Shown here in pieces: positions 1 through 14,514 of a stretch of DNA of 27,454 nt. Every line of letters begins with the position of its first letter. Position 1 is the first letter of the stretch. Below the pieces are notes generated by a model. That model did no database searches and had not been told where the DNA came from. It worked only from the letters and a program-made list of their open reading frames with translations. The DNA comes from a virus (Duplodnaviria; Caudoviricetes), in IMG/VR virus record IMGVR_UViG_3300044911_002392, positions 1 through 27,454 of that record, one strand, 5' to 3'. Both the position numbers and the translations under genes were made by a program.

Positions 1-61
1 CCCCGGGGTACCGGGCCCCTCCCCCCCGGGGTCCACGACCCCTCCCCCCCGGGGGGAGGGG
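1..61. repeat. Iteron-like CCCCTCCCCCCCGGGG repeats with 23-bp period (candidate origin inside rep)
   Basis: Full copies at 16-31 and 39-54; the tail of a third copy (CCCCGGGG) is at 1-8; GGGGGGAGGGG at 51-61 is an inverted partial copy. Confidence 0.6.
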
Positions 62-390
62 AGCGTTGACCCACCCCCCACCTGCGCCACCACGGGCTCC
101 GTCGGGATGGGGTCGTCCAGCCGCACCGAGATGAGGCTGGTGGCGGTCCCGCCGCCGGGGTGCACCCGCCGAATACGCGACAGGTAGCCCATCTCCTCCA
201 GCTCACGGAGGCATCGACGGAGGTCGCGCACGTCCATGCGCGCCTCGACCGCCAGCGTGGAGTTCGAGGCCCACACGTTGTCGCCATAGCGGTCCGTATG
301 GAGTCCTACCGCCAGCAGCGCGCGGAGCTGGGGATAGGTCAGCTCCGGATCAAACAACGCCCGGGCCGGGATGATGCACAGGTTCGGCAT
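1..390 (-). CDS. Phage replication initiator with N-terminal winged HTH (3' part runs off the window)
   Basis: Absent from the ORF track; translated by hand from ATG at 390: MPNLCIIPARALFDPELTYPQLRALLAVGLHTDRYGDNVWASNSTLAVEARMDVRDLRRCLRELEEMGYLSRIRR..., open to base 1. The 'W-S--TLA-E------VRR-L-ELE--GYL' pattern is typical of phage replisome-organiser HTH proteins. Confidence 0.8.
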   Translation of the reverse strand, partial: MPNLCIIPARALFDPELTYPQLRALLAVGLHTDRYGDNVWASNSTLAVEARMDVRDLRRCLRELEEMGYLSRIRRVHPGGGTATSLISVRLDDPIPTEPVVAQVGGGSTLPSPRGGGVVDPGGEGPGTPG

Positions 391-405
391 AGGGTCCAAA
401 GCATA

Positions 406-482
406 GCCCCCCGCTGCAGGGGTGGAGTCCGTCGCGCCGAGCAAGGGGGGTGTCGGCGGACGGCACCCTGCAGACGGGGGGC
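406..482 (-). promoter_or_regulatory. Long stem-loop in the 5' leader of rep (candidate cis-regulatory RNA)
   Basis: Watson-Crick arms 406-413/475-482, 414-421/466-473, 429-433/459-463 and 435-440/453-458. It ends about 15 nt before the rep ATG. Confidence 0.6.
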
Positions 483-539
483 CGGGATGCTACGGGCTCG
501 GCGTCCTGCTCCAACAGGGCCGTGCGTCAGTTGTCCCGC

Positions 540-568
540 ACAATGCCACCGGAGCGGTGATTCGTCAA
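540..568 (-). promoter_or_regulatory. Sigma70-like promoter facing rep
   Basis: Minus strand reads TTGACG-17 nt-CATTGT, with TGG just before the -10 box (extended -10-like). Confidence 0.5.
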
Positions 569-588
569 CCCGTAGGGTATGCTACGTG

Positions 589-1764
589 CTAGTGCGGTGA
601 GTTCTTCGCATCCCCTGTCTGATAAGCGTGAGGTCCGAGGTTCAACTCCTCGCTGGCCCATCGTCGTTCGTTTCGGACGCGCGCCCGTAGGCGTGCGGCC
701 TCTGCCCGCGCGTACTCGGCCTGCTGCTCGGCGTAGATGCGGTCCGGGACGGCCGTGTCCGTCCAGCCGCCGTGCGCCATCAGCCCCTCGCGCGACACCC
801 CCAGCGCCTTCACCGCGTCCACCGCCGCGCGCCGGATCCCATACGCCCCCCGGCCCGGGCGGTGCGGCACGCCGGCAGCCGCCTCCACCATCGCGAACTG
901 GGCCACCACCCACCGCCGGCCAACCGGGCGCGCGGACAGGTGCCGGGTGGGACAGGCCCGTGCTGCCCCGCTGCGGCCCCCGGGAAGCTGTCCGCACGGG
1001 AATAAGGGGTAATCCTGCCCTGAGCCCTCCAGCTCGCTCAGATAGCCCTCCAGCGCCTCTAGCGCGGCTGCCTGCTGGCCGGCGGTAAGCTCGACCACCA
1101 CGCCCCGCTTCCGGCCCCGGCCGCGCACGGTCAGGGTGCCCCCCTGCAGGTCGAGGTCGCGGCGCCGGCAGCGCACCACCTGCCCCAGCCGGAGCTCGGC
1201 GCCCAGCGCCAGCAGCAGCCGGAACCGAGGGTCGGCTTGTTCCGCCGCCTGCAGGATCCGGCGCAGCTCCTCGAGGGTGTGGCGGGGTCGGCGCGGCTCC
1301 GGGCCGTCCCCGGCCAGCCGGTGGTAGTCCTCGGCCAGCCGGAGGCGCCACTCCCGCTCCGGGCCGACGATGCGGACCACGTGGCCCTCCTCCACCAGCC
1401 ACCGCGCCACGGTGGCGGCGCGCTGCACCACCAGCTCGGTGCCCCGGTGCCCGCCGTGGCCGGCCTCGCGCAGCACGGTGAGGCGCCACCGCCAGAGGCT
1501 GCGCCAGTCACCCCGGGTGAGGGTGCCCCACGGCCGGTCGGCGCCCCAGTGTGCAGCCGCCAGCGCCAGCGCGCGCGCCACCTCCTTCCCGTGCCCCGTC
1601 TCGCGCGACCAGCGGCCCGTGGCCGGGTCCAGCGCCACCTCGGCCGCCTCGCCCACGGTCATGGGGCCGCCGCCCGCCGCAGGGCGGATCCACTGTCGCA
1701 CCCGCTGCCCCCAACGCAAAGGGGCGGACCCGTGGCCCGCCCCTTTGTCCTTCGCTCCGCTCAT
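589..1764 (-). CDS. int: Tyrosine recombinase / phage integrase
   Basis: Catalytic motifs: LLLALGAELRLGQV (R), GRGRKRG (K), AYGIRR (H-x-x-R variant), GGW...DRIY (W, Y). Overlaps the tRNA-derived att core. Confidence 0.9.
   Translation of the reverse strand: MSGAKDKGAGHGSAPLRWGQRVRQWIRPAAGGGPMTVGEAAEVALDPATGRWSRETGHGKEVARALALAAAHWGADRPWGTLTRGDWRSLWRWRLTVLREAGHGGHRGTELVVQRAATVARWLVEEGHVVRIVGPEREWRLRLAEDYHRLAGDGPEPRRPRHTLEELRRILQAAEQADPRFRLLLALGAELRLGQVVRCRRRDLDLQGGTLTVRGRGRKRGVVVELTAGQQAAALEALEGYLSELEGSGQDYPLFPCGQLPGGRSGAARACPTRHLSARPVGRRWVVAQFAMVEAAAGVPHRPGRGAYGIRRAAVDAVKALGVSREGLMAHGGWTDTAVPDRIYAEQQAEYARAEAARLRARVRNERRWASEELNLGPHAYQTGDAKNSPH
619..660 (+). other. attP core candidate: 3' half of tRNA-Ile(GAU)
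   Basis: CT-GAT-AA anticodon loop, GCGTG, AGGTC variable loop, T-arm CGAGG-TTCAACT-CCTCG, acceptor strand CTGGCCC-A. No D-arm or 5' acceptor strand upstream. It lies within an integrase gene. Confidence 0.88.
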
Positions 1765-2021
1765 GCCTCCTGCGCTTTCTCCGGCTCACCCGGCTTGTCG
1801 TCACTCTGGCCCTGCTCCTGCGCCGGCCCCTGCATCGCCTGCTGCATGTACTCGTCCCACGCCATGGTCAGCGGCACCGGCTGCATCCGCCCCCAGCGCC
1901 GTTCCTTGCTGCTCCACTCCCACATGTTGCCGGCGGCCGTCAGCACCAGCAGCTTACCGCTCGCGCCGACCGTCATCGACACCGGGATGTCGTGAACGGT
2001 CTTCTCGGTCACGTCGCTCAT
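1761..2021 (-). CDS. Hypothetical protein (86 aa, [14 protein letters not shown]...)
   Basis: ATGA overlaps with bet upstream and int downstream. True start inferred at 2021 rather than 2546. Confidence 0.7.
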
Positions 2022-2884
2022 GCCACCAGCCCCTCGGCTTCCGCCGCGTCCTCGTCCATGTCCTGCTGCGCCGCCCGGTCGAACAGCACCAGCTCCACCG
2101 CGTGGGCCATCACGACGTTCTCCTTCTCTATCGCCCACGCCAGCAACTTCTCGAGGTGCTCCGTGCTCATGTCGCCCAGCGTCCGCCCCTTCACCGTGAT
2201 GCGCAGCGCCTCGTCCAGCGTCGGCAGCGCCGGTGCCGGCGCGGGGAGGGCCGGAATCTCCTCCTGCGCCTCCCCGGACGACTCCGTGGGCGCCACGCTG
2301 GCCTGCCCCATCTCGTCGCTGGTGTAGAGGCCGCTCAGTTCCTGCGGGAACGCCTTCCGCAACGCGAGCGCCTCGGCACACTTCGCCAGCATCACCGCCG
2401 GCATCTTGCCCCACAGCCCGCTGGGCTTCCCTTCCTTGGTCAACTGCCGGTATTCGGGCAGCGTGGCGACGGCGTACAGCGGCTGCGCGAAGTCGTGCCG
2501 CAGCACGCCTACCCGGGCGGCGGCCGGTGGGTGCGACTTCAGCCACACGTCACACCACACGCCGTCCTCGCCGCACCACTGCGCGGGCGTCTGGCCGGCG
2601 TAGCGCGCTGTGCGCTCCGCGATCAGCCGGAACCCGTCGATGCTCACCTGCACCGCCATCACCTCGCGACGCTCGCGGCTGTCCCAGCGCTTGATGGCGT
2701 AAATCTGCCGCGCGAACGGGTCCAGCCCGGTGCGCTGCACCTGCTGCGCGAACAGCGCCAGCTCGTCGTCCGTCGCGCCCTTGGCGATGGTGCGCTTGAT
2801 CAGCTCCACCTGCTCCCGGGACAGCGCCGCCCCCTCCATGGGGGCGACGGTCCCGTTGTTCATCTTCGTCACGGCAGTGCTCAC
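2018..2884 (-). CDS. bet: Phage recombination protein Bet (Red-beta/RecT ssDNA annealing family)
   Basis: [17 protein letters not shown]...[15 protein letters not shown]...[12 protein letters not shown]...[20 protein letters not shown]...[11 protein letters not shown] start with AAGGGGGAG RBS and GTGA overlap. Confidence 0.92.
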
Positions 2885-3267
2885 AGCTCCCCCTTGTCGA
2901 TATTGTCGAGAATCTCGGTGTCGAGGCCCCACATGTGCGGTTGGCGCCGCACGCCTTTGATGTCCTCGTCGGTCCAGTGACGAAGGACACGGCCCACCGC
3001 ACGGCGTACATCCAATGCATGGTCCGTCATCTCGCGCATTGAGTTGTACATCAGCGTCGCTCGCATATGCCCCATGTCAACAATGCACGCCACGATGTCG
3101 GCCCCGCCCTTGTCCACCAGTCCGGCGACGTAGCTGTCGCGGCGCACTACTTTCTCCGTCGGCCAGTCAAGGCACAGCAGCGCCATCTCCTTGCGGGCAT
3201 TCTCGAGTTGGTGCAGCACCCGCTGCACGCCTTCGTCGGACTGAGTCCTCCACTCGTTAAGCGTCAC
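2881..3267 (-). CDS. Hypothetical protein (128 aa)
   Basis: GTGA overlaps at both ends; protein-like composition from [13 protein letters not shown] onward. Confidence 0.7.
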
Positions 3268-3992
3268 AGGCCGGCCTCCAGCACGTGTGGCACGCCCCAC
3301 GAAGAGAACGTCGGCGCAATGCGGCGGAAGATGTCGCGCGTGGTCCGCACGTCCTGCCGGCAGTACTCCGCGATGGCCTCGAACTGCCCCGCGTTGTACA
3401 GCGGCCACACCGCGCCGCCGTCCATCCCCGGGGTCTTGCCCGCCACGCCCAGCGCCTGCGCCCACTCGTCCAGCCCCTCGCCGCTCACGCGCACTTCGTG
3501 GTTCATCAGCGCCGCCTTGCAGTCGAAGTGCGGGTACAGCGTGTACCGCTTGAACCACCCCTGCACGCGGTTCGTGTACAGCAGGCGCTTGGGGAGCTCG
3601 ACGCCAAGGATCAGCCCGCGCACCAGCAGGAACCGGAGGTCAAAGTGCCCGTTCCACGTCACCACCTCCCCCTCGCGAAGCGCCAGCAACTCGAAGGTGC
3701 GCCACACCGCGAAGCGCTCCTCCGACTCGTTCCACGCCTCCATCACCTGCACGTCGTCACCGCCGACGGCGGGCGTCAGCCCCACGCACAGCACGCGCCC
3801 CAGCCGGGGGTTGAGGCTGTACGCCTTGACGCGCTCCGTCTCCCACGCCGCGCGGTCGGCCTCGCGCCAGCGGCTGATCGCCTCCTCGCTCTTGTAGTTC
3901 GCGGGCGGCTGCCGCTGCGCCTCGGGGTAGGGCAGCGCCATGCTGCTCGCGAGCGGGACCGTCTCAATGTCAAGCACGACCGGGTTGTCCAT
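3264..3992 (-). CDS. DEDD (DnaQ/PolB-like) 3'-5' exonuclease, RNase H fold
   Basis: ExoI LDIET, ExoII VTWNGHFDL, ExoIII YCRQDV. Start at the ATG of MDNPVVLDIET. Confidence 0.88.
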   Translation of the reverse strand: MDNPVVLDIETVPLASSMALPYPEAQRQPPANYKSEEAISRWREADRAAWETERVKAYSLNPRLGRVLCVGLTPAVGGDDVQVMEAWNESEERFAVWRTFELLALREGEVVTWNGHFDLRFLLVRGLILGVELPKRLLYTNRVQGWFKRYTLYPHFDCKAALMNHEVRVSGEGLDEWAQALGVAGKTPGMDGGAVWPLYNAGQFEAIAEYCRQDVRTTRDIFRRIAPTFSSWGVPHVLEAGL

Positions 3993-4159
3993 CACGCATC
4001 CCCCCGGCCAAACGACGCATCCACCAACCGCGCCAGCCGCTGCTGCGCCTGCTCCTCGCGACGCGCCGCCTCCACCTCCAGCTCGTCCACCCGCTGCTCC
4101 AGCCGCGCCACCGCCTCCTGCAGCGCACGGATCGCGTCCCGCGTCTCGTCCAACATCAT
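3992..4159 (-). CDS. Small coiled-coil hypothetical protein (55 aa)
   Basis: AAGGGGG RBS, heptad-like IRALQEAVARLEQRVDELE, stop overlaps the exonuclease start. Confidence 0.65.
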   Translation of the reverse strand: MMLDETRDAIRALQEAVARLEQRVDELEVEAARREEQAQQRLARLVDASFGRGDA

Positions 4160-4220
4160 CGTGCCCCCTTGCGTAGTTGATGAACCTGCTGCGGACCTCA
4201 CGTGGAACCACCACATCGAC

Positions 4221-4487
4221 CTACGCCTGCGACGCCGCCTCATGCCGCGCCTCGGGGCTGCCTTCGCCGGCGGTGTCGTCCGCCAGCACGCCCGCGATGA
4301 AGTCGTCCAGCACCTGACGCAACCGGCGCGATTGCCGCCGGCCCGTGCTGACCATGTACAGGTGGTCGGGGGTCACCCCCAAGTCCTGTGCGACCTGCCG
4401 CACGGACAGCCCCGACAATGCCAGCGCGGCACGTAACTCGCGGTGGATGCTGTCACGCGGCGGCGGCTGAGGGACTGGTGCCGTCAT
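4221..4487 (-). CDS. Cro-like XRE HTH regulator
   Basis: ELRAALALSGLSVRQVAQDLGVTPDHLYMVSTGRRQS; first gene of the early operon, divergent from the repressor. Confidence 0.8.
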   Translation of the reverse strand: MTAPVPQPPPRDSIHRELRAALALSGLSVRQVAQDLGVTPDHLYMVSTGRRQSRRLRQVLDDFIAGVLADDTAGEGSPEARHEAASQA

Positions 4488-4554
4488 ACGAAATCCCCTA
4501 TGCTGGAGGTTGGCTATGCTGCTCGACGCGGAGAAGATCCTACCCGCACGGAGT

Positions 4555-4583
4555 AAACTACACCGGGGCGGTAGGATGCGCAA
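4555..4583 (-). promoter_or_regulatory. Early (lytic) promoter candidate
   Basis: Minus strand reads TTGCGC-17 nt-TAGTTT, overlapped by the ATCCTACC/GGTAGGAT inverted repeat. Confidence 0.5.
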
Positions 4584-4677
4584 CGGGTCGGGGCGCCTAC
4601 CTTACGGCCGCCAGCCCTTGACGGCCGGAAGCATTCCTGTTAGCGGTAAGGCATTGCCGCAGAAAGTGTTGCGTTCA

Positions 4678-5142
4678 ATGGCGAGAGGGGAGCCCGCGAT
4701 CTATATGTCGCACGGTTTGGGCCGGAGGCTGTTCCAAGCGCGCCACGCGCTGTCCGTGGAGCTCGGCTACAACGTCACGCAAACCAGCGTCGCGAAGGCG
4801 CTGGGGACCACCGGCACCTCCATTGGGCGCTACGAGGCCGGGATCAAGATCCCCGACCTCGAGATGCTCGAGCGGCTTGCGATGGTGCTGCGGGTGACGC
4901 CCTGCTACCTCGCGTTCGGGTGCGAGCACCCCATGACGGGGCGCGACATCACCGACGAAGAAACAGAACCAGCGCCGCGCCTGCCAACGCACCGGCCCCG
5001 GCGTCGCGAGCTCGAGTCCGAAGGGAGGGACGCCCGGGCGGTGCCGCCAGTGCCGATTCAGCGGCCAGCCGCAGCCGGTGCTCGAGCGCGGCCCGCTGCT
5101 CGCACGTCAGCACCGAAGAGACACACGCGCGGAGGGCGGTAG
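4678..5142 (+). CDS. CI-like XRE-family repressor (no peptidase S24 domain seen)
   Basis: LGRRLFQARHAL...TQTSVAKALGTTGTSIGRYEAGIKIPDLEMLERLAMVLRVTPCYLAFG. The only convincing plus-strand gene; start at 4678 or 4705. Confidence 0.85.
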   Translation: MARGEPAIYMSHGLGRRLFQARHALSVELGYNVTQTSVAKALGTTGTSIGRYEAGIKIPDLEMLERLAMVLRVTPCYLAFGCEHPMTGRDITDEETEPAPRLPTHRPRRRELESEGRDARAVPPVPIQRPAAAGARARPAARTSAPKRHTRGGR

Positions 5143-6683: not shown

Positions 6684-9164
6684 CTACCGTTCGTTCTGGT
6701 TCCGTGGACCGGCGCCAGCCATCCCCATAGCCCCCGCACCGCCAGCCATCAGGCCGACAGCCGGCAGCCCCTGATAGCCTTGCCGGCGCACGTAGTCCTG
6801 AAAGGACCGGAACCCGCCGCCGGAGCTGGCCGACAGGAGGTCGAGCAGGCGCTGAACGTCCGGGCGGTTGGCGGCGGCCTGCGGACCCAGAACCCGCTGC
6901 GCGACGGCGCGACGCGCGTCCAGCATGGCTGGCACCCCCGCCACGTCGAGGCGCTGCGCGGCGTTGATCACGTCGGGCCGGTTGAGCGTCTCATCGAGGA
7001 ACCGGGCCACCTGCCCGGACCCCTCCTCGCCCCACGGCACCGTGGTGAGGCCGCTCTCCAGCCGCCCCGGGGTGATCTCGTAGTTGCCTTTGAGCTTCGT
7101 GAGCGTCTGCTTGATCACCTTCTGCACGTCCTTGCCATCCACGGTGGTGTTCCACACCGTGCCGGGAGTCGTGAAGTCGGAGTCGGCGTACCGGCCCACG
7201 TAGAAGCCGGTGTCGCCGTAGTCCATGATGTTCAGGCCGGCCGCCTCCAGCGCGGCTTTGGCTTGCGCGAGATCGTTCGGGTTGCCCATCACGTGCGCGC
7301 CGGTCTTCTCGGAACCCTTCATGCTAGAGTTCTGGGGCGTGAACTTGCCCAACCCGACGCCCTGCTGGCCGCGAATGACGCCCTCGATGGCGCTCTGGAC
7401 CTCGAGGCCACCCCGGCTGGCGTCGTCCATCATAGGGCCTCCACGCTTGAGGTTGCCCTTGGCGTTGCGCCCCAGCACCGAGCTCTGCATCCCCACCAGC
7501 GGGCGCGCCACGTCGGTGACGCTTTGCGTGATCTCGCCCGTCGCCGGATCTGTCCACTGACCGCGCACCACGCGCGTGGGCTCCTGAAACATCTGGAACG
7601 CCGACAGCAACGGGTTGCGCTCGCCGGTCGCCGCCAGTGACTCGCGCGCGAACTGCTCCTGCGCCTCGGCTGGCAACGCCCCGAACCCTTCGTACATGCC
7701 GCTGGTGGAGCCGGGGGCGAACTCGGCCGTGATCGCCGCCACCTGACGCCGCGCTGCGTCGTCGATGCCGGCGTTCGCCTTCGCGCGCATTTCCTGCAGC
7801 GTCAGCAGCTTGGGCGCCGTCGGGCGCGTCGCCTTCTTTCCCTTTGCCTTGGCACGGTCGAACTTCGCCATGTCCTTCTGGTACTTCGCCAGCATGGCGT
7901 TCTGCGCCTCAAGCATCTGCTGAAAGCGCTCCGCACCCCACGTAGCAGCCTGCGCGGCGCGGGGCGACCACGTGAATGACGAGTAGCCCGGTGGCAAGAG
8001 CCCCGCGCGCTGCGCCCGCTCTGCCACAAGCAGGTTCTCGCCCGTCAGGAAGCCGTGCTCTTGCGGCGTGAAGCCGCGCGAGAACAGCGCATCGGGGTTG
8101 TTCTTGCTTCCCTGATAGCCGAACACGCGCCCGTGCCAGATGTCGTTGGCCGTCTTGTACAGCTCGTCCTCCGGCACCGTCGGATCCTTGGCGTCCGCGT
8201 ACGGTCCGGTCTTCTTGCCCAGCCGAATGCGGGCCGGCTCAAGCGTGAATCCGCCAGTCACTGGATTGTACACGTAGGCGGTTGCCACATTGCGCGCCTG
8301 CGCCCCGGTGCGCGGAGTGATGTCGTCGCCGCGCAGCACCTTCGCGTTGTGCTGGCGCAGCATGGCGTTGATTTCGGTGGGCGGGGTCGCCTGCGGGCTG
8401 TATGCAGCGCCGCTGCGCGCGAAAAGCGACGCCATGCGGCCCTCTTCGGAAAGCGGATCCATCCCCTGCTGGAATCCCGACACGTCTTCAGCCGTGTCGC
8501 GCGCGCGGGTGTACCACGCCGCATTGGAAAGCCCACCCTCCACCTTCTGGTCAACCTGCGACCGCATGGCGCCCAGCTTCTGGGGCGAATCGACGCCGCG
8601 CGGCGCGCCGATGTACTGGCCCGTGGTCGGGTTCTGCTTGAGGTGCTCGCCGCGCAGGGATGCCTGCAGCGCTTCAGCCGCGTTCATGTCATCGAACACG
8701 GTGGCAACGCTCTGGTCAGTGAGGTTGGATGCCGCCACCCGGCCACTCCGCGCCGCTTCATCCGTCACGTCCGCCAGCTTCTTGAGCTTGCGCGCCGCCT
8801 TTACCTTGCTGCCGACGCCGGCCGTGGAAAGACCAATCGCGAGGTCGGCGCCGATCTTGCCGGCGCCACCACGCACGTCGCCGCGCAGCATGTCGGCCAG
8901 TCCACTGATGACCGTCCCAGCGCCAACGGGCCCCGGCGTCAGCACGTCCGCGCCGATGCCTAACAGCTCGCCCACACTCGGGCCGCGCAGCCCGCTGGGT
9001 ACGCCCATGCTGCCGGCACCCGCGCGACGCGCCTGCTCCTGCATCGCCATCAGGTCACGCAGCGCGCGCGTCGCGGTCGCATCCGACGGCTCCGGACGCA
9101 CCAGCGTGAGCGGGCGGTAGTCGTCCAGCGACGGCCGGCGACGGGGAGGAAACAGCGGATCCAT
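6684..9164 (-). CDS. Large putative internal virion/ejection protein with a central HhH-glycosylase-like motif set
   Basis: Last gene of the ejection cluster; Gly/Ala-rich hydrophobic ends; central WY...AAYSPQ...GKKT..Y...DIWHGR...QAATW. Confidence 0.6.
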   Translation of the reverse strand: MDPLFPPRRRPSLDDYRPLTLVRPEPSDATATRALRDLMAMQEQARRAGAGSMGVPSGLRGPSVGELLGIGADVLTPGPVGAGTVISGLADMLRGDVRGGAGKIGADLAIGLSTAGVGSKVKAARKLKKLADVTDEAARSGRVAASNLTDQSVATVFDDMNAAEALQASLRGEHLKQNPTTGQYIGAPRGVDSPQKLGAMRSQVDQKVEGGLSNAAWYTRARDTAEDVSGFQQGMDPLSEEGRMASLFARSGAAYSPQATPPTEINAMLRQHNAKVLRGDDITPRTGAQARNVATAYVYNPVTGGFTLEPARIRLGKKTGPYADAKDPTVPEDELYKTANDIWHGRVFGYQGSKNNPDALFSRGFTPQEHGFLTGENLLVAERAQRAGLLPPGYSSFTWSPRAAQAATWGAERFQQMLEAQNAMLAKYQKDMAKFDRAKAKGKKATRPTAPKLLTLQEMRAKANAGIDDAARRQVAAITAEFAPGSTSGMYEGFGALPAEAQEQFARESLAATGERNPLLSAFQMFQEPTRVVRGQWTDPATGEITQSVTDVARPLVGMQSSVLGRNAKGNLKRGGPMMDDASRGGLEVQSAIEGVIRGQQGVGLGKFTPQNSSMKGSEKTGAHVMGNPNDLAQAKAALEAAGLNIMDYGDTGFYVGRYADSDFTTPGTVWNTTVDGKDVQKVIKQTLTKLKGNYEITPGRLESGLTTVPWGEEGSGQVARFLDETLNRPDVINAAQRLDVAGVPAMLDARRAVAQRVLGPQAAANRPDVQRLLDLLSASSGGGFRSFQDYVRRQGYQGLPAVGLMAGGAGAMGMAGAGPRNQNER

Positions 9165-9167
9165 GCG

Positions 9168-11306
9168 TCAGTACCCTCGGATGAGTTGTCCGCCCACCAC
9201 GCCACCGAGCCGACCGCCGGCCCGGGCGCCGATCTGTGCGCGCTGCGCCGCCGCCGCCGCTGCCGGCGACAGCCCGCGCAGGTACGCCACCGCCTCCGGC
9301 CCCTGCTGCGTCAGCAGGTCCGCAAGCTGCGCCGCCGTGCTGGTGCGCGCGCGCGAAGCGCCCGCGTTTGCCAGCCCCATGAGCGCCAGCCGCGCCAGCC
9401 CCATCGCATCCATCGACAAGTCACCGGGCCGGAAGTCCGTCGCGAAGTCCAGCAGCCCCGCAAGGTTCTGCGCCGTCTGCGACTGCCGCGTCATGCGCGC
9501 ATACGGGCCCGCCATGCGCAGCTCGTCCTCCACCATGCTCCGCAGCATCTCGAACGACTCCTCGTCCGGGTACAGCTTGCGCAGGCGCTGCTGCGCGGTC
9601 GGGTCAGTGAGGATGTTCACCGCCACCGCGCGCCCCTCCCGCCGCCGAAGCTGCTCCGCGATGGCGTTGGCCGCCCCTAGCCGGTACATGTCCCGCTCGT
9701 CCGGGTTGAGGCCGGCCAGCGTGTCCTCGAAGTCGTCCGCGCCGCCCCGCAGGAACCGCTTTCCAGACTCGAGCGCGTCCATCAGCCCCTGCTGCCCGCC
9801 CCAGAACTGCCGCGCCTTCTTGTAGGCCGGTGCCTGCACGTCCACCTGCGTGACCAGCGTGTTCTTTGCCCCCGTCAGGATGCGCGCAAGATCCGCGTCC
9901 TCGTTCCGCTGCGCTGCCCCGATCAGGGCGTCAAAGCCGCGTTTGACTACGTCAATGTCGCGCACCGTGGGGTCGCGCAGCAGCTCGATGGTCTCCTCGC
10001 CGTCGTTGTACTTGGTCACGCGGAACAGCGCCGGCAGCGGCTTCTTGTCTGCGTCCGTGAACGCCTCGAGGCGCGAGCGGCGCAGCCCCTCGAACCACGC
10101 CTTCCGCGCGTCCGAGGTCAGCAGCAGGTTGATCCCATCCTCGTTGAGCTGCACCGGGCCGTGCGCGTACGCCTCCTCGTACAGCAGCTTGGCGGGCGGC
10201 TTGCGGTCCGCGTCGATCTGGCGGACCACCTGATTGATGTTCTGCAGCTTGGACCGGCTGGTTTTCTCGACGCCCTCGGCCAGCCGGCCGCTGGCGCCCT
10301 GCACGCGACCCTGAAAGAATTCCGCCACCCGGCGCCGCCCTTGCCCGGGGATCAGGTACGCCGTGTTCGCCAGCTCAAGGAGGTTCTCCTCCCCCACGTC
10401 CGCGACCGCGCCCGGGGCCCCGCGCGCCTGCATCGCCTCGAGGCGCTGCGCCGCCATCTCCGGGGTGAGCTCGTCGTCGGCCAGCGCCTGCATCAGCTTG
10501 CCCTCGGCGCGGCGCTGCGCGCGCCGGTCCAGCGGGCCCGCCGTCAGCTTCTGCGCCGCAAGCGCGGGCGCGTTCGTGGCCGTCCGGACGGCGCGCTGAA
10601 ACGGGTTGGCGCTTCCCGGGAGGGGCGGCGGCGCGTTTTCGGCCATTGCCCGAATTGGCGTCTCCAGCACGTCCACTGCCCGACTGCCCAGCGCGCGCAT
10701 CCCGGCGCCGACGGCGGGAATGGCGCCGCCCACCACCGTCCCCACGCCCGCGCCCAGCCCCGCCGCCGCCGGCACGTCCTCCATCTCCGGCGCTGCCCCT
10801 GCGCCCGTCACCGCCCCGGAGGCGGCGCCGGCCGCCGCCGCCCGCGCCACCCGGGCGCCCAGCGGAGCCATGCGCGCCGCCACCCCGGGCGCCGCCGCGC
10901 CGCCAGAGGCGATCAGCGCGGCCGCGCTGGGGATGATAGCGCCGCCGATCTCGGCCGGGATGCTCAGGCCCGGGTACTGGTCCGCGAACTCGGCCTGCTC
11001 GCTGCGGATCTGGTCCCGCGTCGCCTTGTAGTCGCCCAGCTTGCCGAAGCCCGTGCGGAACCCCGCCTCGATCTCGTCCCCGAACTGGAACCCGAGTCCC
11101 TGCCCCAGCGCGCTGCGCGCCACGCCCTTGGCGATGTCGCCCATCCCCATCGCCGGCTTGGCTGCTGCCGGCTGCGGTGCCGCCTGCTGCTTAGACAGCT
11201 CGCGCTGGAGGTACGCCCGGATGACCTCCTCCGGCGCCCCGTTGCGGCGCATCGTCTCCACGTCTCGGCGGATCCGCTCCTCGTCAGGGTTCTGCAGTCC
11301 GTCCAT
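9168..11306 (-). CDS. Putative DNA ejection/internal virion protein (712 aa)
   Basis: GQGLGFQFGDEIEAG motif followed by long Ala/Gly hydrophobic stretches, as in podophage DNA-transfer proteins; position after the tail genes. Confidence 0.7.
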   Translation of the reverse strand: MDGLQNPDEERIRRDVETMRRNGAPEEVIRAYLQRELSKQQAAPQPAAAKPAMGMGDIAKGVARSALGQGLGFQFGDEIEAGFRTGFGKLGDYKATRDQIRSEQAEFADQYPGLSIPAEIGGAIIPSAAALIASGGAAAPGVAARMAPLGARVARAAAAGAASGAVTGAGAAPEMEDVPAAAGLGAGVGTVVGGAIPAVGAGMRALGSRAVDVLETPIRAMAENAPPPLPGSANPFQRAVRTATNAPALAAQKLTAGPLDRRAQRRAEGKLMQALADDELTPEMAAQRLEAMQARGAPGAVADVGEENLLELANTAYLIPGQGRRRVAEFFQGRVQGASGRLAEGVEKTSRSKLQNINQVVRQIDADRKPPAKLLYEEAYAHGPVQLNEDGINLLLTSDARKAWFEGLRRSRLEAFTDADKKPLPALFRVTKYNDGEETIELLRDPTVRDIDVVKRGFDALIGAAQRNEDADLARILTGAKNTLVTQVDVQAPAYKKARQFWGGQQGLMDALESGKRFLRGGADDFEDTLAGLNPDERDMYRLGAANAIAEQLRRREGRAVAVNILTDPTAQQRLRKLYPDEESFEMLRSMVEDELRMAGPYARMTRQSQTAQNLAGLLDFATDFRPGDLSMDAMGLARLALMGLANAGASRARTSTAAQLADLLTQQGPEAVAYLRGLSPAAAAAAQRAQIGARAGGRLGGVVGGQLIRGY

Positions 11307-11310
11307 CAGG

Positions 11311-12480
11311 TCACCCCGGGTTCAGGAAGTACTGAATCATCTCATCCATGGACATGCTGTCGCCACCGGCGCCCTGCGGGGTGTTGCTGTAGTCGTAGTA
11401 CCTACGCGCAGGCTCCGCGAGCTTTCGCATCGACTGCATGTAGGTGGCGCGCGCAGCCGACTTGGCCTTGGCGAGATCCGGCGAGTCTCCGGGCGCCGGC
11501 ACGTAGCGCTGGAACACGTCCCGCAGCTCGTTCGGCGTGATGGCTGCGCCAGACTCCTTGCGGAGCACACCGGCCGCGAAGTCACGCGCGGCGCGCAGGT
11601 ACTCCTGCTCCTCGTCGTTCAGGATGACGTTGCCGGCCCCAAACGGCGTGCGGAGGGCTGACGCCAGCTTCCAGCCGCTGATCTTGCCACTCTGGCCCAG
11701 CTCGTCCATGGTGACGCTCGCGTCGTCCATCAGCTTGGCATACAGGTAGCTTTTCTCCTGCGCCTCCGTCGGACGAGCGGGCGGGCGCGGCACCGACGGT
11801 CGGGTGCCAGTGGGCACGCGCTCGCGCATCCCGGTGTCGAACCGCTGCCCGGGCTGGAGTTCCGGCACCTGCACGAAGGCGACGCTACCGTCAGCCTGCA
11901 CGACCCGCTGCGGCGCCCCGGGCTGCTGCGGCTTGGGGCGCAGCCGGTCCAGCAGCGCCCCCCGCATGTTTTCTGGGGACGCCATGATGGCCTGCGACTC
12001 CTGCGGGGTGAACCCTGCCGCCTGCAGCGCCTGCACGCCCTGCCGCGTCGCCATCTCGGCCTTGCCGGCCTCCGTCCGCTCGTACGGCTGGAAGTACTTC
12101 GTCGCCTTGCCGGCGCTGTCGGTGTAGTCGAACGTGCGCCCCTTCTGCAGCCGCTCGCGCGCCTGCTTGCCCATCATCGCAAGCGCGTCGCCCGCCATCC
12201 CCAGCGACCCGGGTGCACCACGCAGCCCGCCGAGCTGCTCCATCTGCGCGGCCTGCTGCTCCAGCGGCGCGTACTCCTCCAGCCCCAGCTCGAAGCGCTT
12301 GAGGTTGAACTGCTGCTCCTGCGCACGCTGCTGCGCCTCGCGGGCCAACCGCTCCTTTTCCTCCTGCCGCTCGCGCTCCTCCCGCAAAGCACGGCGCTGC
12401 TGCTCCTGTGCCAAGAGCTGCATCCCCGTAGACCCCAGTGACTGCAACCCAGCACCCAACCCGGCAAGAAAGTCAGACAT
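11311..12480 (-). CDS. Putative DNA ejection/internal virion protein (389 aa)
   Basis: N-terminal FLAGLGAGL plus coiled coil; C-terminal TEAQEK...LRKESGAAI...YVPAPGD block. Confidence 0.7.
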   Translation of the reverse strand: MSDFLAGLGAGLQSLGSTGMQLLAQEQQRRALREERERQEEKERLAREAQQRAQEQQFNLKRFELGLEEYAPLEQQAAQMEQLGGLRGAPGSLGMAGDALAMMGKQARERLQKGRTFDYTDSAGKATKYFQPYERTEAGKAEMATRQGVQALQAAGFTPQESQAIMASPENMRGALLDRLRPKPQQPGAPQRVVQADGSVAFVQVPELQPGQRFDTGMRERVPTGTRPSVPRPPARPTEAQEKSYLYAKLMDDASVTMDELGQSGKISGWKLASALRTPFGAGNVILNDEEQEYLRAARDFAAGVLRKESGAAITPNELRDVFQRYVPAPGDSPDLAKAKSAARATYMQSMRKLAEPARRYYDYSNTPQGAGGDSMSMDEMIQYFLNPG

Positions 12481-12483
12481 GCG

Positions 12484-14514
12484 TTAGCCCCCGAGCCCAA
12501 GCAACTGCAGGAAGAAACGGTCCTGATCGCTCAAGACCCCTTGGTTGAAGCGCGCCCTCTCGAGGTCGTTGCTGAACGCATCCTGCCCCATCCCGCGCAA
12601 AAACTGCGACCAGTTGAGGTTCTGCGAAAAGCGGTCGTTGCCAGCGTTGCGGCTGAAGTTGGCTACGTCCATCTGGTTCTGGAACCCCTGCTGCCCGAGC
12701 TGATTCTGGAACTGCAACCCCTGCATCCCCTGCCCAAAGCTCTGCGCGTTCCGCCGCAGCCCGAAATCCGCCGTCCCGATGCGCTGGTTGAACCCTTGCG
12801 CCTCCCGCCGCAGCCCGAAATCCTGCTGCGCCATGGCGTTGTTGAACGCCGCGTTCTGTTGCGCCAGCGACAACTGCTGCCCCTGCAGTCCAAGGTTGGC
12901 GCGCCCCATCTCCTCGCTCAACGCTGCCGCGCGCTGACCCTGCCCCATCCCGATGGCCTGCGCGCGTGCGCCGGCAAAGTCGCGCGCCCGCTGCCCCGCG
13001 AGATCGGACGCCAACTGTGCCTGAGCGCTCCTCTGCTGCACGTTCAAGTCGGACAACCGCCCGCCCATGATGCTCGAGTCCGACAACCCCCGCGCCGCCA
13101 TCTCCTCGCGCAACGCCGTCTGCCGCTGCGCAAACTCGTCGTCGATGTTCTGCCCCATCTCGCCGTACAGCCGTCGCACCTCCGCGTTGTCGAACGCGGA
13201 CGGGTTCTGCAGCGCCTCACGCAGGGACTGCTCGGTCAACGAGTTCACGTCGAGCATCTGCGCGCCTTGCGCACCGCCGCCAATCGCTGCGAAGCCGGGA
13301 GATGCGCTCGCCGCCGGTGACCCGGCAGCACCGCCACTGGGCGCGGCCGCAGGCGCGCTTTGGCCCGCTTGTAGTTGCGCAAGCCGCTCCTGTGAAGGCG
13401 GAGTGGTCGTCCACTGCCCGTCGTAGTAGTACTTGATCGGCTGCCCAGCCGTTTGCCCCTGCAGGTACTCTGCGCCGGGGTTAGCCTCCAAAACGGAACG
13501 AAGGATCAGATCCTCGGTGGACTCCCCGGGGCGTGCCGATACGGAACGAACAGGCCCCGGAATGGAGACTGGTCCCTGCGTCGCCTGCGTCGCCTGCCTC
13601 GCCTGCGTTGCCTGCGTTGCCTGCGCAGCCGCTGGGAATGCCGCCGCCTGCGCAGGCGTCTGCATAGACGATTGCGCCAGCATCACCGGATCGACGCCTT
13701 CCGACGTGAGCCCAGCCGGCATCGCCTGCGCAGCCTCCGCAAGCCCCGGCGCGTTGCGGCCGAGTTCCATGAGCTGCCGCAGTTGTTCAAGAAACGATTG
13801 CGGAGCAGTGTACGGGGTTGGAGCCGTCGGCAAGGCGCCCGTCTGCAACTGGCCGGCCGCAAAGCCAGCAAGGTCAAACGGCGCCGGCGCTGCCGCCGAA
13901 TTTTGCTCCTGACGCTGCATAAACTGCTGCTGCGCCGCCATCTGCCGCTGGAACCCCTCCGGATCCATCATGGCTGCCATGGGGTCCAGCCCCATTTGCT
14001 GGGCCTGCTGCATGGCCGCTTCCTGCTGTGGCGAGCGCTGGCCCTGCAGTGCGCCCATCTGCTGCTCGAACTGCTGCCGCGCGTTGGCATCCCACTGCGA
14101 ACCGTACTGCTGCTGCGCCTGCCGCATCGTCGCCAACTGCGCGTCCACGGACGCCTGCGGGTTGTAGCCTCCCTGCGCCTGCGGCGCCTGCCGCGAATAC
14201 CCCTGCGTCTGCACCGGCGGGGGCGCAGGACGCGCCTGACCCTGCCGCTGAAGCTCCGCGAACGTGGGCTGCGGCGCCTTGTTCACCGGGCGCGGCGCAT
14301 CGACAGCCTGAAGTCCCTGCTCGAAATCGCCGTCCGTTTGCTGCTGGGGCTGCGGCGGGGCTTGCTGCGACGGGGGCGGCGAAGGCGTTGGCCTCTGTTG
14401 GGCCCCCGCCTGTGCACGGCGACGGCGCTCCTCCTCGTCAGTCGCCGTCTGCCCGTAGCCCGCCGCCCGCTGATCTCCGCCGTAACCAGCGGCCGGGTTG
14501 TACATCATGCGCAT
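12484..14514 (-). CDS. Gln/Ala-rich putative ejection (pilot-like) protein (676 aa)
   Basis: Low-complexity Q/A/P N-terminus; helical C-terminus with 9-residue Phe periodicity. Confidence 0.7.
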   Translation of the reverse strand: MRMMYNPAAGYGGDQRAAGYGQTATDEEERRRRAQAGAQQRPTPSPPPSQQAPPQPQQQTDGDFEQGLQAVDAPRPVNKAPQPTFAELQRQGQARPAPPPVQTQGYSRQAPQAQGGYNPQASVDAQLATMRQAQQQYGSQWDANARQQFEQQMGALQGQRSPQQEAAMQQAQQMGLDPMAAMMDPEGFQRQMAAQQQFMQRQEQNSAAAPAPFDLAGFAAGQLQTGALPTAPTPYTAPQSFLEQLRQLMELGRNAPGLAEAAQAMPAGLTSEGVDPVMLAQSSMQTPAQAAAFPAAAQATQATQARQATQATQGPVSIPGPVRSVSARPGESTEDLILRSVLEANPGAEYLQGQTAGQPIKYYYDGQWTTTPPSQERLAQLQAGQSAPAAAPSGGAAGSPAASASPGFAAIGGGAQGAQMLDVNSLTEQSLREALQNPSAFDNAEVRRLYGEMGQNIDDEFAQRQTALREEMAARGLSDSSIMGGRLSDLNVQQRSAQAQLASDLAGQRARDFAGARAQAIGMGQGQRAAALSEEMGRANLGLQGQQLSLAQQNAAFNNAMAQQDFGLRREAQGFNQRIGTADFGLRRNAQSFGQGMQGLQFQNQLGQQGFQNQMDVANFSRNAGNDRFSQNLNWSQFLRGMGQDAFSNDLERARFNQGVLSDQDRFFLQLLGLGG
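13575..13625. repeat. 9-bp tandem repeat (CCTGCGTYG, about 5.7 copies) encoding QAT repeats
   Basis: Read directly from the sequence; protein QATQATQARQATQATQ. Confidence 0.9.

Follow-up and report, generated by a model that had tools for sequence, protein, structure and literature searches.

Attachment sites that lie inside the integrase gene are already known from Mx8 and SSV1. In Mx8 a long C-terminal segment of Int is reportedly exchanged, about 112 residues by 13, with a measured effect on activity. Integration of Mx8 gives int a new 3' end and the enzyme is still active (PMC6070905, PMC4383910). Sites centred on the anticodon are a known class (PMC4383910), and the residue at the catalytic His position is given as Lys in SSV1 and Tyr in pNOB8 (PMC5861418). 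In phages BPs and Brujita there is no RDF, host sequence provides a stop at attL and the amount of Int sets recombination, and their integrases act on core sites alone in both directions (PMC9262239, PMC3694055, PMC8138268). Two further papers served as background only (PMC10865867, PMC11610982).

The window analysed here, meaning the whole stretch of 27,454 nucleotides, covers 27.5 kb of a temperate tailed phage from freshwater. The same phage is present as a complete 39,403-bp record with terminal repeats (G406), which is identical over the 1,401 bases compared. Its int ORF runs through a tRNA-Ile core, probably because the arm domain, the arm repeats and the int-to-core spacer are gone. The reading preferred here, with a probability of roughly 55%, is that Int is a secondarily simplified Brujita/Cre-like integrase controlled by its expression within an early operon, that a deletion fused its ORF into the core, and that the exchange of the Int tail predicted on integration is a tolerated side effect. 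The integrase and attachment site features are as follows.

589 to 1764, minus strand: tyrosine integrase with core-binding and catalytic domains only (phrog_1, E 9e-11; PF00589, weak).
1663 to 1764, minus strand: N-terminal 34 residues, at the place where relatives carry an arm-binding-like domain of about 80 aa.
733 to 735, minus strand: codon of the catalytic Tyr344, outside the crossover (Tyr in 118 of 119 homologues).
661 to 666, minus strand: 6-bp remnant of the int-to-core spacer (RR; MS in other alleles).
619 to 662, plus strand: att common core, the 3' half of tRNA-Ile(GAT), with the opposite strand encoding WASEELNLGPHAYQ (43-44 bp identity, 9 host loci).
619 to 625, plus strand: anticodon loop, the predicted 7-bp overlap for strand exchange, with a predicted cleavage position.
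589 to 618, minus strand: phage-form tail TGDAKNSPH-stop, residues 383-391, replaced on predicted integration by ACALTT-stop.
391 to 618, no strand: far arm of attP, in which a repeat and motif scan found no arm-type repeat of the family.

The minus-strand ORF encodes 391 aa and ends ...RARVRNE-RR-WASEELNLGPHAYQ-TGDAKNSPH-stop. Int belongs to the tyrosine recombinase superfamily, as it has both the catalytic set (R192, K219, Y308-x-x-R311, W334 and Y344) and the core-binding/catalytic fold. The residues of the set are conserved in 118-119 of 119 homologues, with R311 present in 110 of them. The AlphaFold model (pLDDT 76, falling below 50 at residues 1-31 and 369-391) was matched by Foldseek to lambda Int(75-356), the best hit, and to XerA, Brujita Int and Cre (E 4e-7 to 2e-5); a sequence search of the PDB gave weak Xer matches only. 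Crossover is predicted after residue 382, so that all catalytic residues precede it and the swap point lies 38 residues beyond Tyr344. Two features of the active site were noted separately: a Tyr replaces the His of the H-x-x-R motif in all 119 family members (window 1189-1191, 832-843), and R312 is an invariant second Arg, next to R311 which is Lys in 9 of the 119.

The conserved part of the integrase family ends at E366, and the protein could start at either Met1 or Met35. Both points would be in keeping with an extension that is never made, the protein ending earlier or starting elsewhere and the overlap with the core being an artefact. This is highly improbable, since no stop codon interrupts the frame from E366 to 591, whether in the window, in G406 or in two other alleles that were assembled independently, and since the choice of start leaves the tail untouched.

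The tRNA origin of the core was examined with several tools. Rfam gave a tRNA-like match at 586-660 (plus strand) in which the 3' half was well aligned, with a score of 22.7 bits that is below the gathering score, and ARAGORN found no whole tRNA in the window. The 34-mer 619-652 matched 126 listed GTDB genome stretches exactly, most of them labelled Gemmatimonadota. Whole tRNA-Ile(GAT) genes account for 87 of these, ten of which match all 42 bases of 619-660; the remaining 39 are 3'-half remnants or are cut at a contig end. In the nine exact-match loci that were checked, identity with the host begins exactly at 619, the first base of the anticodon loop, and extends to 661 or 662. On this comparison the identity of the phage core with the host tRNA is far beyond chance, and tRNA-Ile(GAT) is, judging from the matches, a heavily used integration site in Gemmatimonadota. 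The attP and attR copies of relatives diverge at, or within a few bases of, the start of the anticodon loop. The core is the same in all alleles of the phage and both flanks vary; in allele X17 it shows no differences, whereas the flanks have 12 substitutions and 2 gaps, although taken alone this invariance is weak (no change in 43 bases where the flanks diverge by about 5%). A loxP-like symmetry around the anticodon loop was considered and discarded, as the 6 of 12 (attP) and 8 of 12 (attB) matching positions are unremarkable.

Among L002-L127, most of the 39 exact core matches that are not whole tRNAs are 3'-half remnants, and several genomes carry more than one. A whole tRNA-Ile was also seen in an 81-kb IMG/VR contig (L167), in a cluster of seven tRNA genes, one of which was called tRNA-Pyl(CUA) by ARAGORN.

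The preliminary description had placed the attP core inside the int ORF, with the C-terminal residues of Int encoded antisense to 619-660 and the frame continuing into TGDAKNSPH-stop, and had predicted a host tRNA-Ile matching 619-660. The first is borne out by the ORF, and the second by the exact Gemmatimonadota tRNA genes in GTDB. A crossover in the anticodon loop would yield an Int of 388 aa in which nine residues are swapped for six encoded by the host, with the catalytic Tyr intact, and all 87 whole host tRNAs supply ACALTT-stop in the Int frame. The earlier version of this end was ACALTN-stop: its in-frame host TGA stands, but the Gemmatimonadota tRNAs give ACALTT, and ACALTN belongs to another tRNA allele. 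As had been anticipated, relatives are integrated at the same tRNA and in the same orientation, and two integrated relatives carry the exchanged tail in nature. Both read through in the same frame, L140 (about 46% identical) ending ...HAYQACALTT-stop and L180 (about 32% identical) ending ...HAYQACALTN-stop.

The larger change, which the preliminary description had missed, is the loss of the arm-binding-like domain and of the arm sites. Full-length relatives (about 420-450 aa) start with a domain of about 80 residues that resembles the arm-binding domains of Tn916 and lambda, and it looks arm-binding (score 0.95, with 10 of 10 best named hits in one clan). An HMM built from 98 homologue N-termini matched the integrase of the relative G407 (E 1e-32) and found nothing in the present Int or in six frames of the complete genome G406, which excludes that the domain is encoded elsewhere or in another frame. 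The domain is present in 244 of 286 tree rows, and many of the remainder are fragments. In the FastTree phylogeny the present Int nests among relatives that have the domain (P0011, P0002-P0005; supports 0.88 and 0.76, moderate near this phage), and its loss would therefore be derived. L140 keeps both the N domain and the repeats, so read-through into the core does not need their loss.

The int-to-core spacer measures 6 bp here. Among 13 relatives it is 89-233 bp in nine and 421-1928 bp in four. In the nearer relatives the arm repeats lie in the spacer of 89-233 bp; G407, L146 and L156 carry one 7-mer twice at about -91 to -70, inverted once near -50, and twice on the far side. The int side has at least two copies of the arm motif in 9 of 13 relatives, where the motif pattern was drawn from these relatives themselves and the repeat scan was not. 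The same search in this phage returned no arm-type repeats in 389-618 and a single match at 755, inside int, compared with 4-5 copies in G407, L146 and L156. The far arm, measured to the start of rep, is also shorter: it spans 228 bp, and its counterparts in the two nearest relatives for which DNA exists measure 307 and 338 bp. The far arm of the present phage contains two-copy repeats (TCACCGC, CGTAGCAT) that were rejected as new arm sites, being present in about the number estimated by chance for 220 GC-rich bases. With neither an arm-binding domain nor flanking arm-type repeats, Int is not of the lambda type.

A GC-rich hairpin was seen at 661-720 (about -27.6 kcal/mol over 60 bases, with no shuffle control, and no U run), which lies inside the int coding region and, at the predicted attL, immediately follows the tRNA on its 3' side. 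Read-through from the tRNA there would run antisense to int.

The genes upstream of int, and the one beyond attP, are the following.

1 to 390, minus strand: replication initiator, rep (HTH, lambda O-like), cut by the window end (phrog_270, E 2e-8).
1761 to 2021, minus strand: 86-aa ORF of no known family, with its stop overlapping the int start (ATGA).
2018 to 2932, minus strand: RecT/Bet single-strand annealing protein, in the operon direction of int (PF03837, E 3e-31).
3264 to 4214, minus strand: PolB-type 3'-5' exonuclease (PF10108, E 4e-21).
4221 to 4583, minus strand: Cro-like HTH gene heading the early run to int and rep (HTH_31, E 1e-4; 46% to its G407 counterpart), a role suggested by position.
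4510 to 5142, plus strand: repressor-like HTH gene, divergent from the cro-like gene (HTH_3, E 5e-10; 66% to G407).

Together they form a same-strand run, cro-exo-recT-ORF-int-attP-rep, opposite the repressor-like gene. A promoter scan returned no sites, so the operon is deduced from gene order and the ATGA overlap. The order int-attP-rep is common to the two nearest relatives with DNA, G407 and L146. The position of attP between int and rep, inside an apparent early operon, is an observation of its own (window 1-4583, minus strand; also G407 (L188/L189) and L146). No member of an Xis family was detected among 27 window ORFs, 20 + 17 selected proteins and 65 of 103 small early-region ORFs of G406, in scans that can easily miss small divergent RDFs; this agrees with the earlier remark that no excisionase is recognisable. 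The 86-aa ORF upstream of int was considered as Xis and set aside, as it has no family and no HTH-like match.

Other features of the window were also recorded. Imperfect 23-bp G/C-rich direct repeats lie inside the rep gene (window 1-72; L001 4690-4810) and are iteron-like, as in lambda O, and a weak terminator-like hairpin occurs just ahead of the rep start codon (407-422, minus strand). The region 6684-14514, which follows genes for a P22-like portal and capsid, holds four large ORFs on the minus strand (826, 712, 389 and 676 aa) that have no Pfam hit and probably encode podovirus-type ejection or internal virion proteins.

The simplification preferred here can be set out as a series of steps. 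The relatives closest to the ancestral state are lambda-type, with an arm domain, paired repeats on both sides and a stop some 90-200 bp ahead of the core. From the tree, this lineage would have deleted the arm domain, and also the stop codon together with the near arm, and the far arm would have been shortened. Int would then bind only the core-type half sites around the anticodon loop and may recombine attP x attB and attL x attR alike, without Xis, the direction being set by the timing of Int production. Int production would start on infection, be silenced by the repressor during lysogeny and resume on induction. Integration would move rep to the other end of the prophage, away from the cro-side promoter, and as rep is separated from the early run replication would follow excision. 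At attL, int would be faced by the tRNA, without any spacer between the two. The surviving frame may be the one in which the tRNA D-arm stops six codons on, which would keep the prophage protein short.

How often related integrases reach their core was assessed from 59 locus rows. Two of these are the present phage, a further 8 duplicate other rows, and 19 lack either an identifiable tRNA core or enough DNA, which leaves 30 mapped relatives, one of them mapped in a separate analysis. Twenty-three stop before the core, one stops inside it and six cross it; at tRNA-Ile the read-through is seen in 2 of 18 mapped relatives. In L135, L142, L144, L148, L155, L174, L198, L201 and others, int is followed closely downstream by a whole tRNA-Ile gene in antisense orientation. 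After the conserved R-x-E the tail has a median of 3 residues in 118 near homologues, of which 83 have five or fewer. Homologues that stop before the core, which the preliminary description had named as counting against its proposal, are thus the large majority. The read-through cases fall on separate tree branches, at tRNA-Ile, -Gly, -Pro and -Ala/Thr and in different frames, and read-through is thus, on the tree, sporadic and repeated in the family. Among 250 proteins with the C-terminal block, tRNA-antisense tails were found in six, which scored above all 303 shuffles, and unconserved tails longer than 15 residues in 75. As long unconserved tails are common, reaching the tRNA would be an expected accident. 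The tail of the present Int was absent from other proteins in a region search with residues 325-391 (9 hits among 57 candidates), and a metagenome scan with the single Int protein gave no matches.

A distant branch at tRNA-Gly(CCC) (L205, L206, P0235, P0224, P0256) shows repeated attL read-through that ends ...GSWHSTN at the D-arm TGA. Its tails are 63-139 aa long and one clade keeps the frame over different lengths; a selected tail is more plausible in this branch than in the present phage. In another relative, L173 (G147), int is cut near its C-terminus by what appears to be another inserted element.

The preliminary description went further and proposed that the tail swap acts as a stability or directionality switch. 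Such a switch would replace control by arms and Xis: the polar phage tail would be stable, the hydrophobic CALTT end would cause the prophage Int to be degraded or less active, and the prophage would stay in place. The loss of the arms and the fusion to the core do fall in the same lineage, where no Xis is recognised, and the mean hydropathy of the last five residues changes from -2.6 (phage) to +1.34 (prophage), which leaves an effect of the tail on stability possible. Mx8 offers a precedent (PMC6070905). Against this, 23 of the 30 mapped relatives stop before the core, and the phage tail, which is predicted to be disordered, varies between alleles. The three allelic forms are TGDAKNSPH, TEDAKKPPN and TGDAKSSPN; they differ at 4/9 and 2/9 tail residues vs 7 and 11/332 in the body and 0/14 in the core, and both tail substitutions of allele X17 are non-synonymous. 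Between alleles, no part of Int varies more than the phage tail, which looks unconstrained as judged from these substitutions. Against the preferred reading, all three alleles stay in frame even though both codons of the 6-bp linker differ. The host ssrA tag is ANSNMALAA, ending MALAA in 4 of 4 loci, and CALTT can be aligned with that end at A-L. The terminal Ala-Ala counts most for ClpXP (PMC7652416), and neither Int form has it, the phage end being KNSPH and the prophage end CALTT; mimicry of ssrA by the tails was rejected.

The frame in which relatives read through also bears on the switch. Six of seven independent read-throughs at Ile or Gly use the frame where the D-arm gives TGA (post hoc p 0.026, or 0.058 with P0257 counted as a miss), and one tRNA-Gly clade holds the host-stop frame over tails of 86, 94 and 98 aa. 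This bias shows some selection on the prophage-form end, and it fits the removal of long run-on tails as well as it fits a switch. On balance the proposal of a working switch is not upheld, and we consider it unlikely for this phage. A broader version is likewise unlikely: directionality would have been traded from arm domain, arm sites and Xis to a control written by recombination, with the host tRNA antisense providing a destabilising C-terminus for the prophage Int, as a complex-to-simple reversal within one family in which tRNA D-arm stops were used repeatedly for the same purpose.

The preferred reading, a simplified enzyme with a tolerated tail, requires that the phage still integrates. 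The site is found in the attP form, with contigs of X5, X13, X17 and X2, a possible source, spanning the core unbroken. In run X10 the core is a separate 44-nt unitig at a depth of 42.6 vs about 7.5 for the flanks, which implies that a host-like copy shares it. Eight of 20 listed runs were examined, all as contigs, in which junctions cannot appear because the 44-bp core exceeds the word length of the assembly; run X7 had no cover left of the core and was left out of this reading. Loose contig ends at 619 and 660 trace to tRNA genes of various organisms. No close lysogen was found: a relative occurs in 8 of 401 genomes chosen at the level of the phylum and in 17 of 401 at that of the family, none of them close (best match 49% among the latter), and a DNA query over 301 genomes matched the tRNA core only. 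No attL or attR of this lineage was found in these data, so integration by the arm-less enzyme is inferred.

A phage that no longer integrates, its Int being a decaying relic or serving only multimer resolution or circularisation at its own core, would show the attP form only and no lysogen, and no tail swap would occur. The arm domain is moreover normally required by lambda-type integrases (PMC8138268). However, the available contigs could not have revealed a junction, the repressor and cro-like genes are intact, and int is, from 14 synonymous vs 4 non-synonymous codon changes in the Int body between alleles, under purifying selection. In addition the whole 43-bp tRNA half, which is beyond what recombinase binding needs, is identical to the host gene when the arms are gone on both sides. 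This loss of function is therefore improbable. Continued integration is likely, given the apparent purifying selection, catalytic residues that are all in place and a tRNA half that is still exact after the loss of both arms.

If the preferred reading is correct, one family provides a natural before and after pair at about 70% identity, G407, which has the arm domain, arm repeats in five copies and a spacer of 207 bp, and this phage, which has none of these; the pair lets prophage stability without arms or Xis be tested directly. It would also mean that designs with attP inside int can arise by one deletion, the tRNA D-arm being a ready stop. The enzyme may provide a compact integration tool for Gemmatimonadota if it works on a site of 40-50 bp. 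An inert tail would make the swap no more than a curiosity. A literature search that lay largely outside subscription papers turned up no description of this family, nor of any phage integrase losing its arm domain while fusing to a tRNA core.

Compared with the described systems, the locus is most like Mx8 (and Mx9) in its arrangement, with a tyrosine integrase, a tRNA target and attP inside int (PMC6070905, PMC4383910), and as in Mx8 the core lies inside the int ORF downstream of the nucleophile. It differs in that nine unconserved residues are exchanged for six and in that most family members have no overlap; its sequence could not be related to Mx8 Int, a search of 50,697 phage records (E 1e-3) giving no match. 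The SSV1 type shares an att site inside int and a non-canonical residue at the His position (PMC5861418). There, int is interrupted by integration, whereas here the catalytic domain stays whole, and the phage is thus not of the SSV1 type.

With BPs and Brujita the phage shares the lack of an arm domain and arm sites, a tRNA target and an attP inside an ORF (PMC9262239, PMC3694055 and PMC8138268). In those phages, however, it is the repressor gene that contains attP, ssrA-like tags are present on both proteins and int is co-transcribed with the repressor; here the core (619-662) is in int and away from the repressor-like gene (4510-5142), there is no Ala-Ala tag and int is in the cro-side run. 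With attP outside the repressor and no tag, the phage is not a member of the integration-dependent immunity group of BPs and Brujita. Rci, the shufflon recombinase, likewise lacks an arm domain within a subgroup that mostly has it (PMC8138268) and is thus a precedent for loss of the arm domain alone, but it is a plasmid invertase and the present enzyme is a predicted tRNA-targeting phage integrase. The lambda type, which is the state of the relatives, has the same core-binding and catalytic fold and an anticodon-loop crossover, and it differs in the arm domain, arm sites and Xis that are missing or not recognised in this lineage. The BPs and Brujita enzymes belong to a simple Xer-related group proposed as an early state, whereas here the arm-less state is derived. 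Published models (PMC3694055, PMC8138268) run from simple to arm-bearing integrases, and this lineage appears to be the reverse step, from an arm-bearing enzyme to a simple one.
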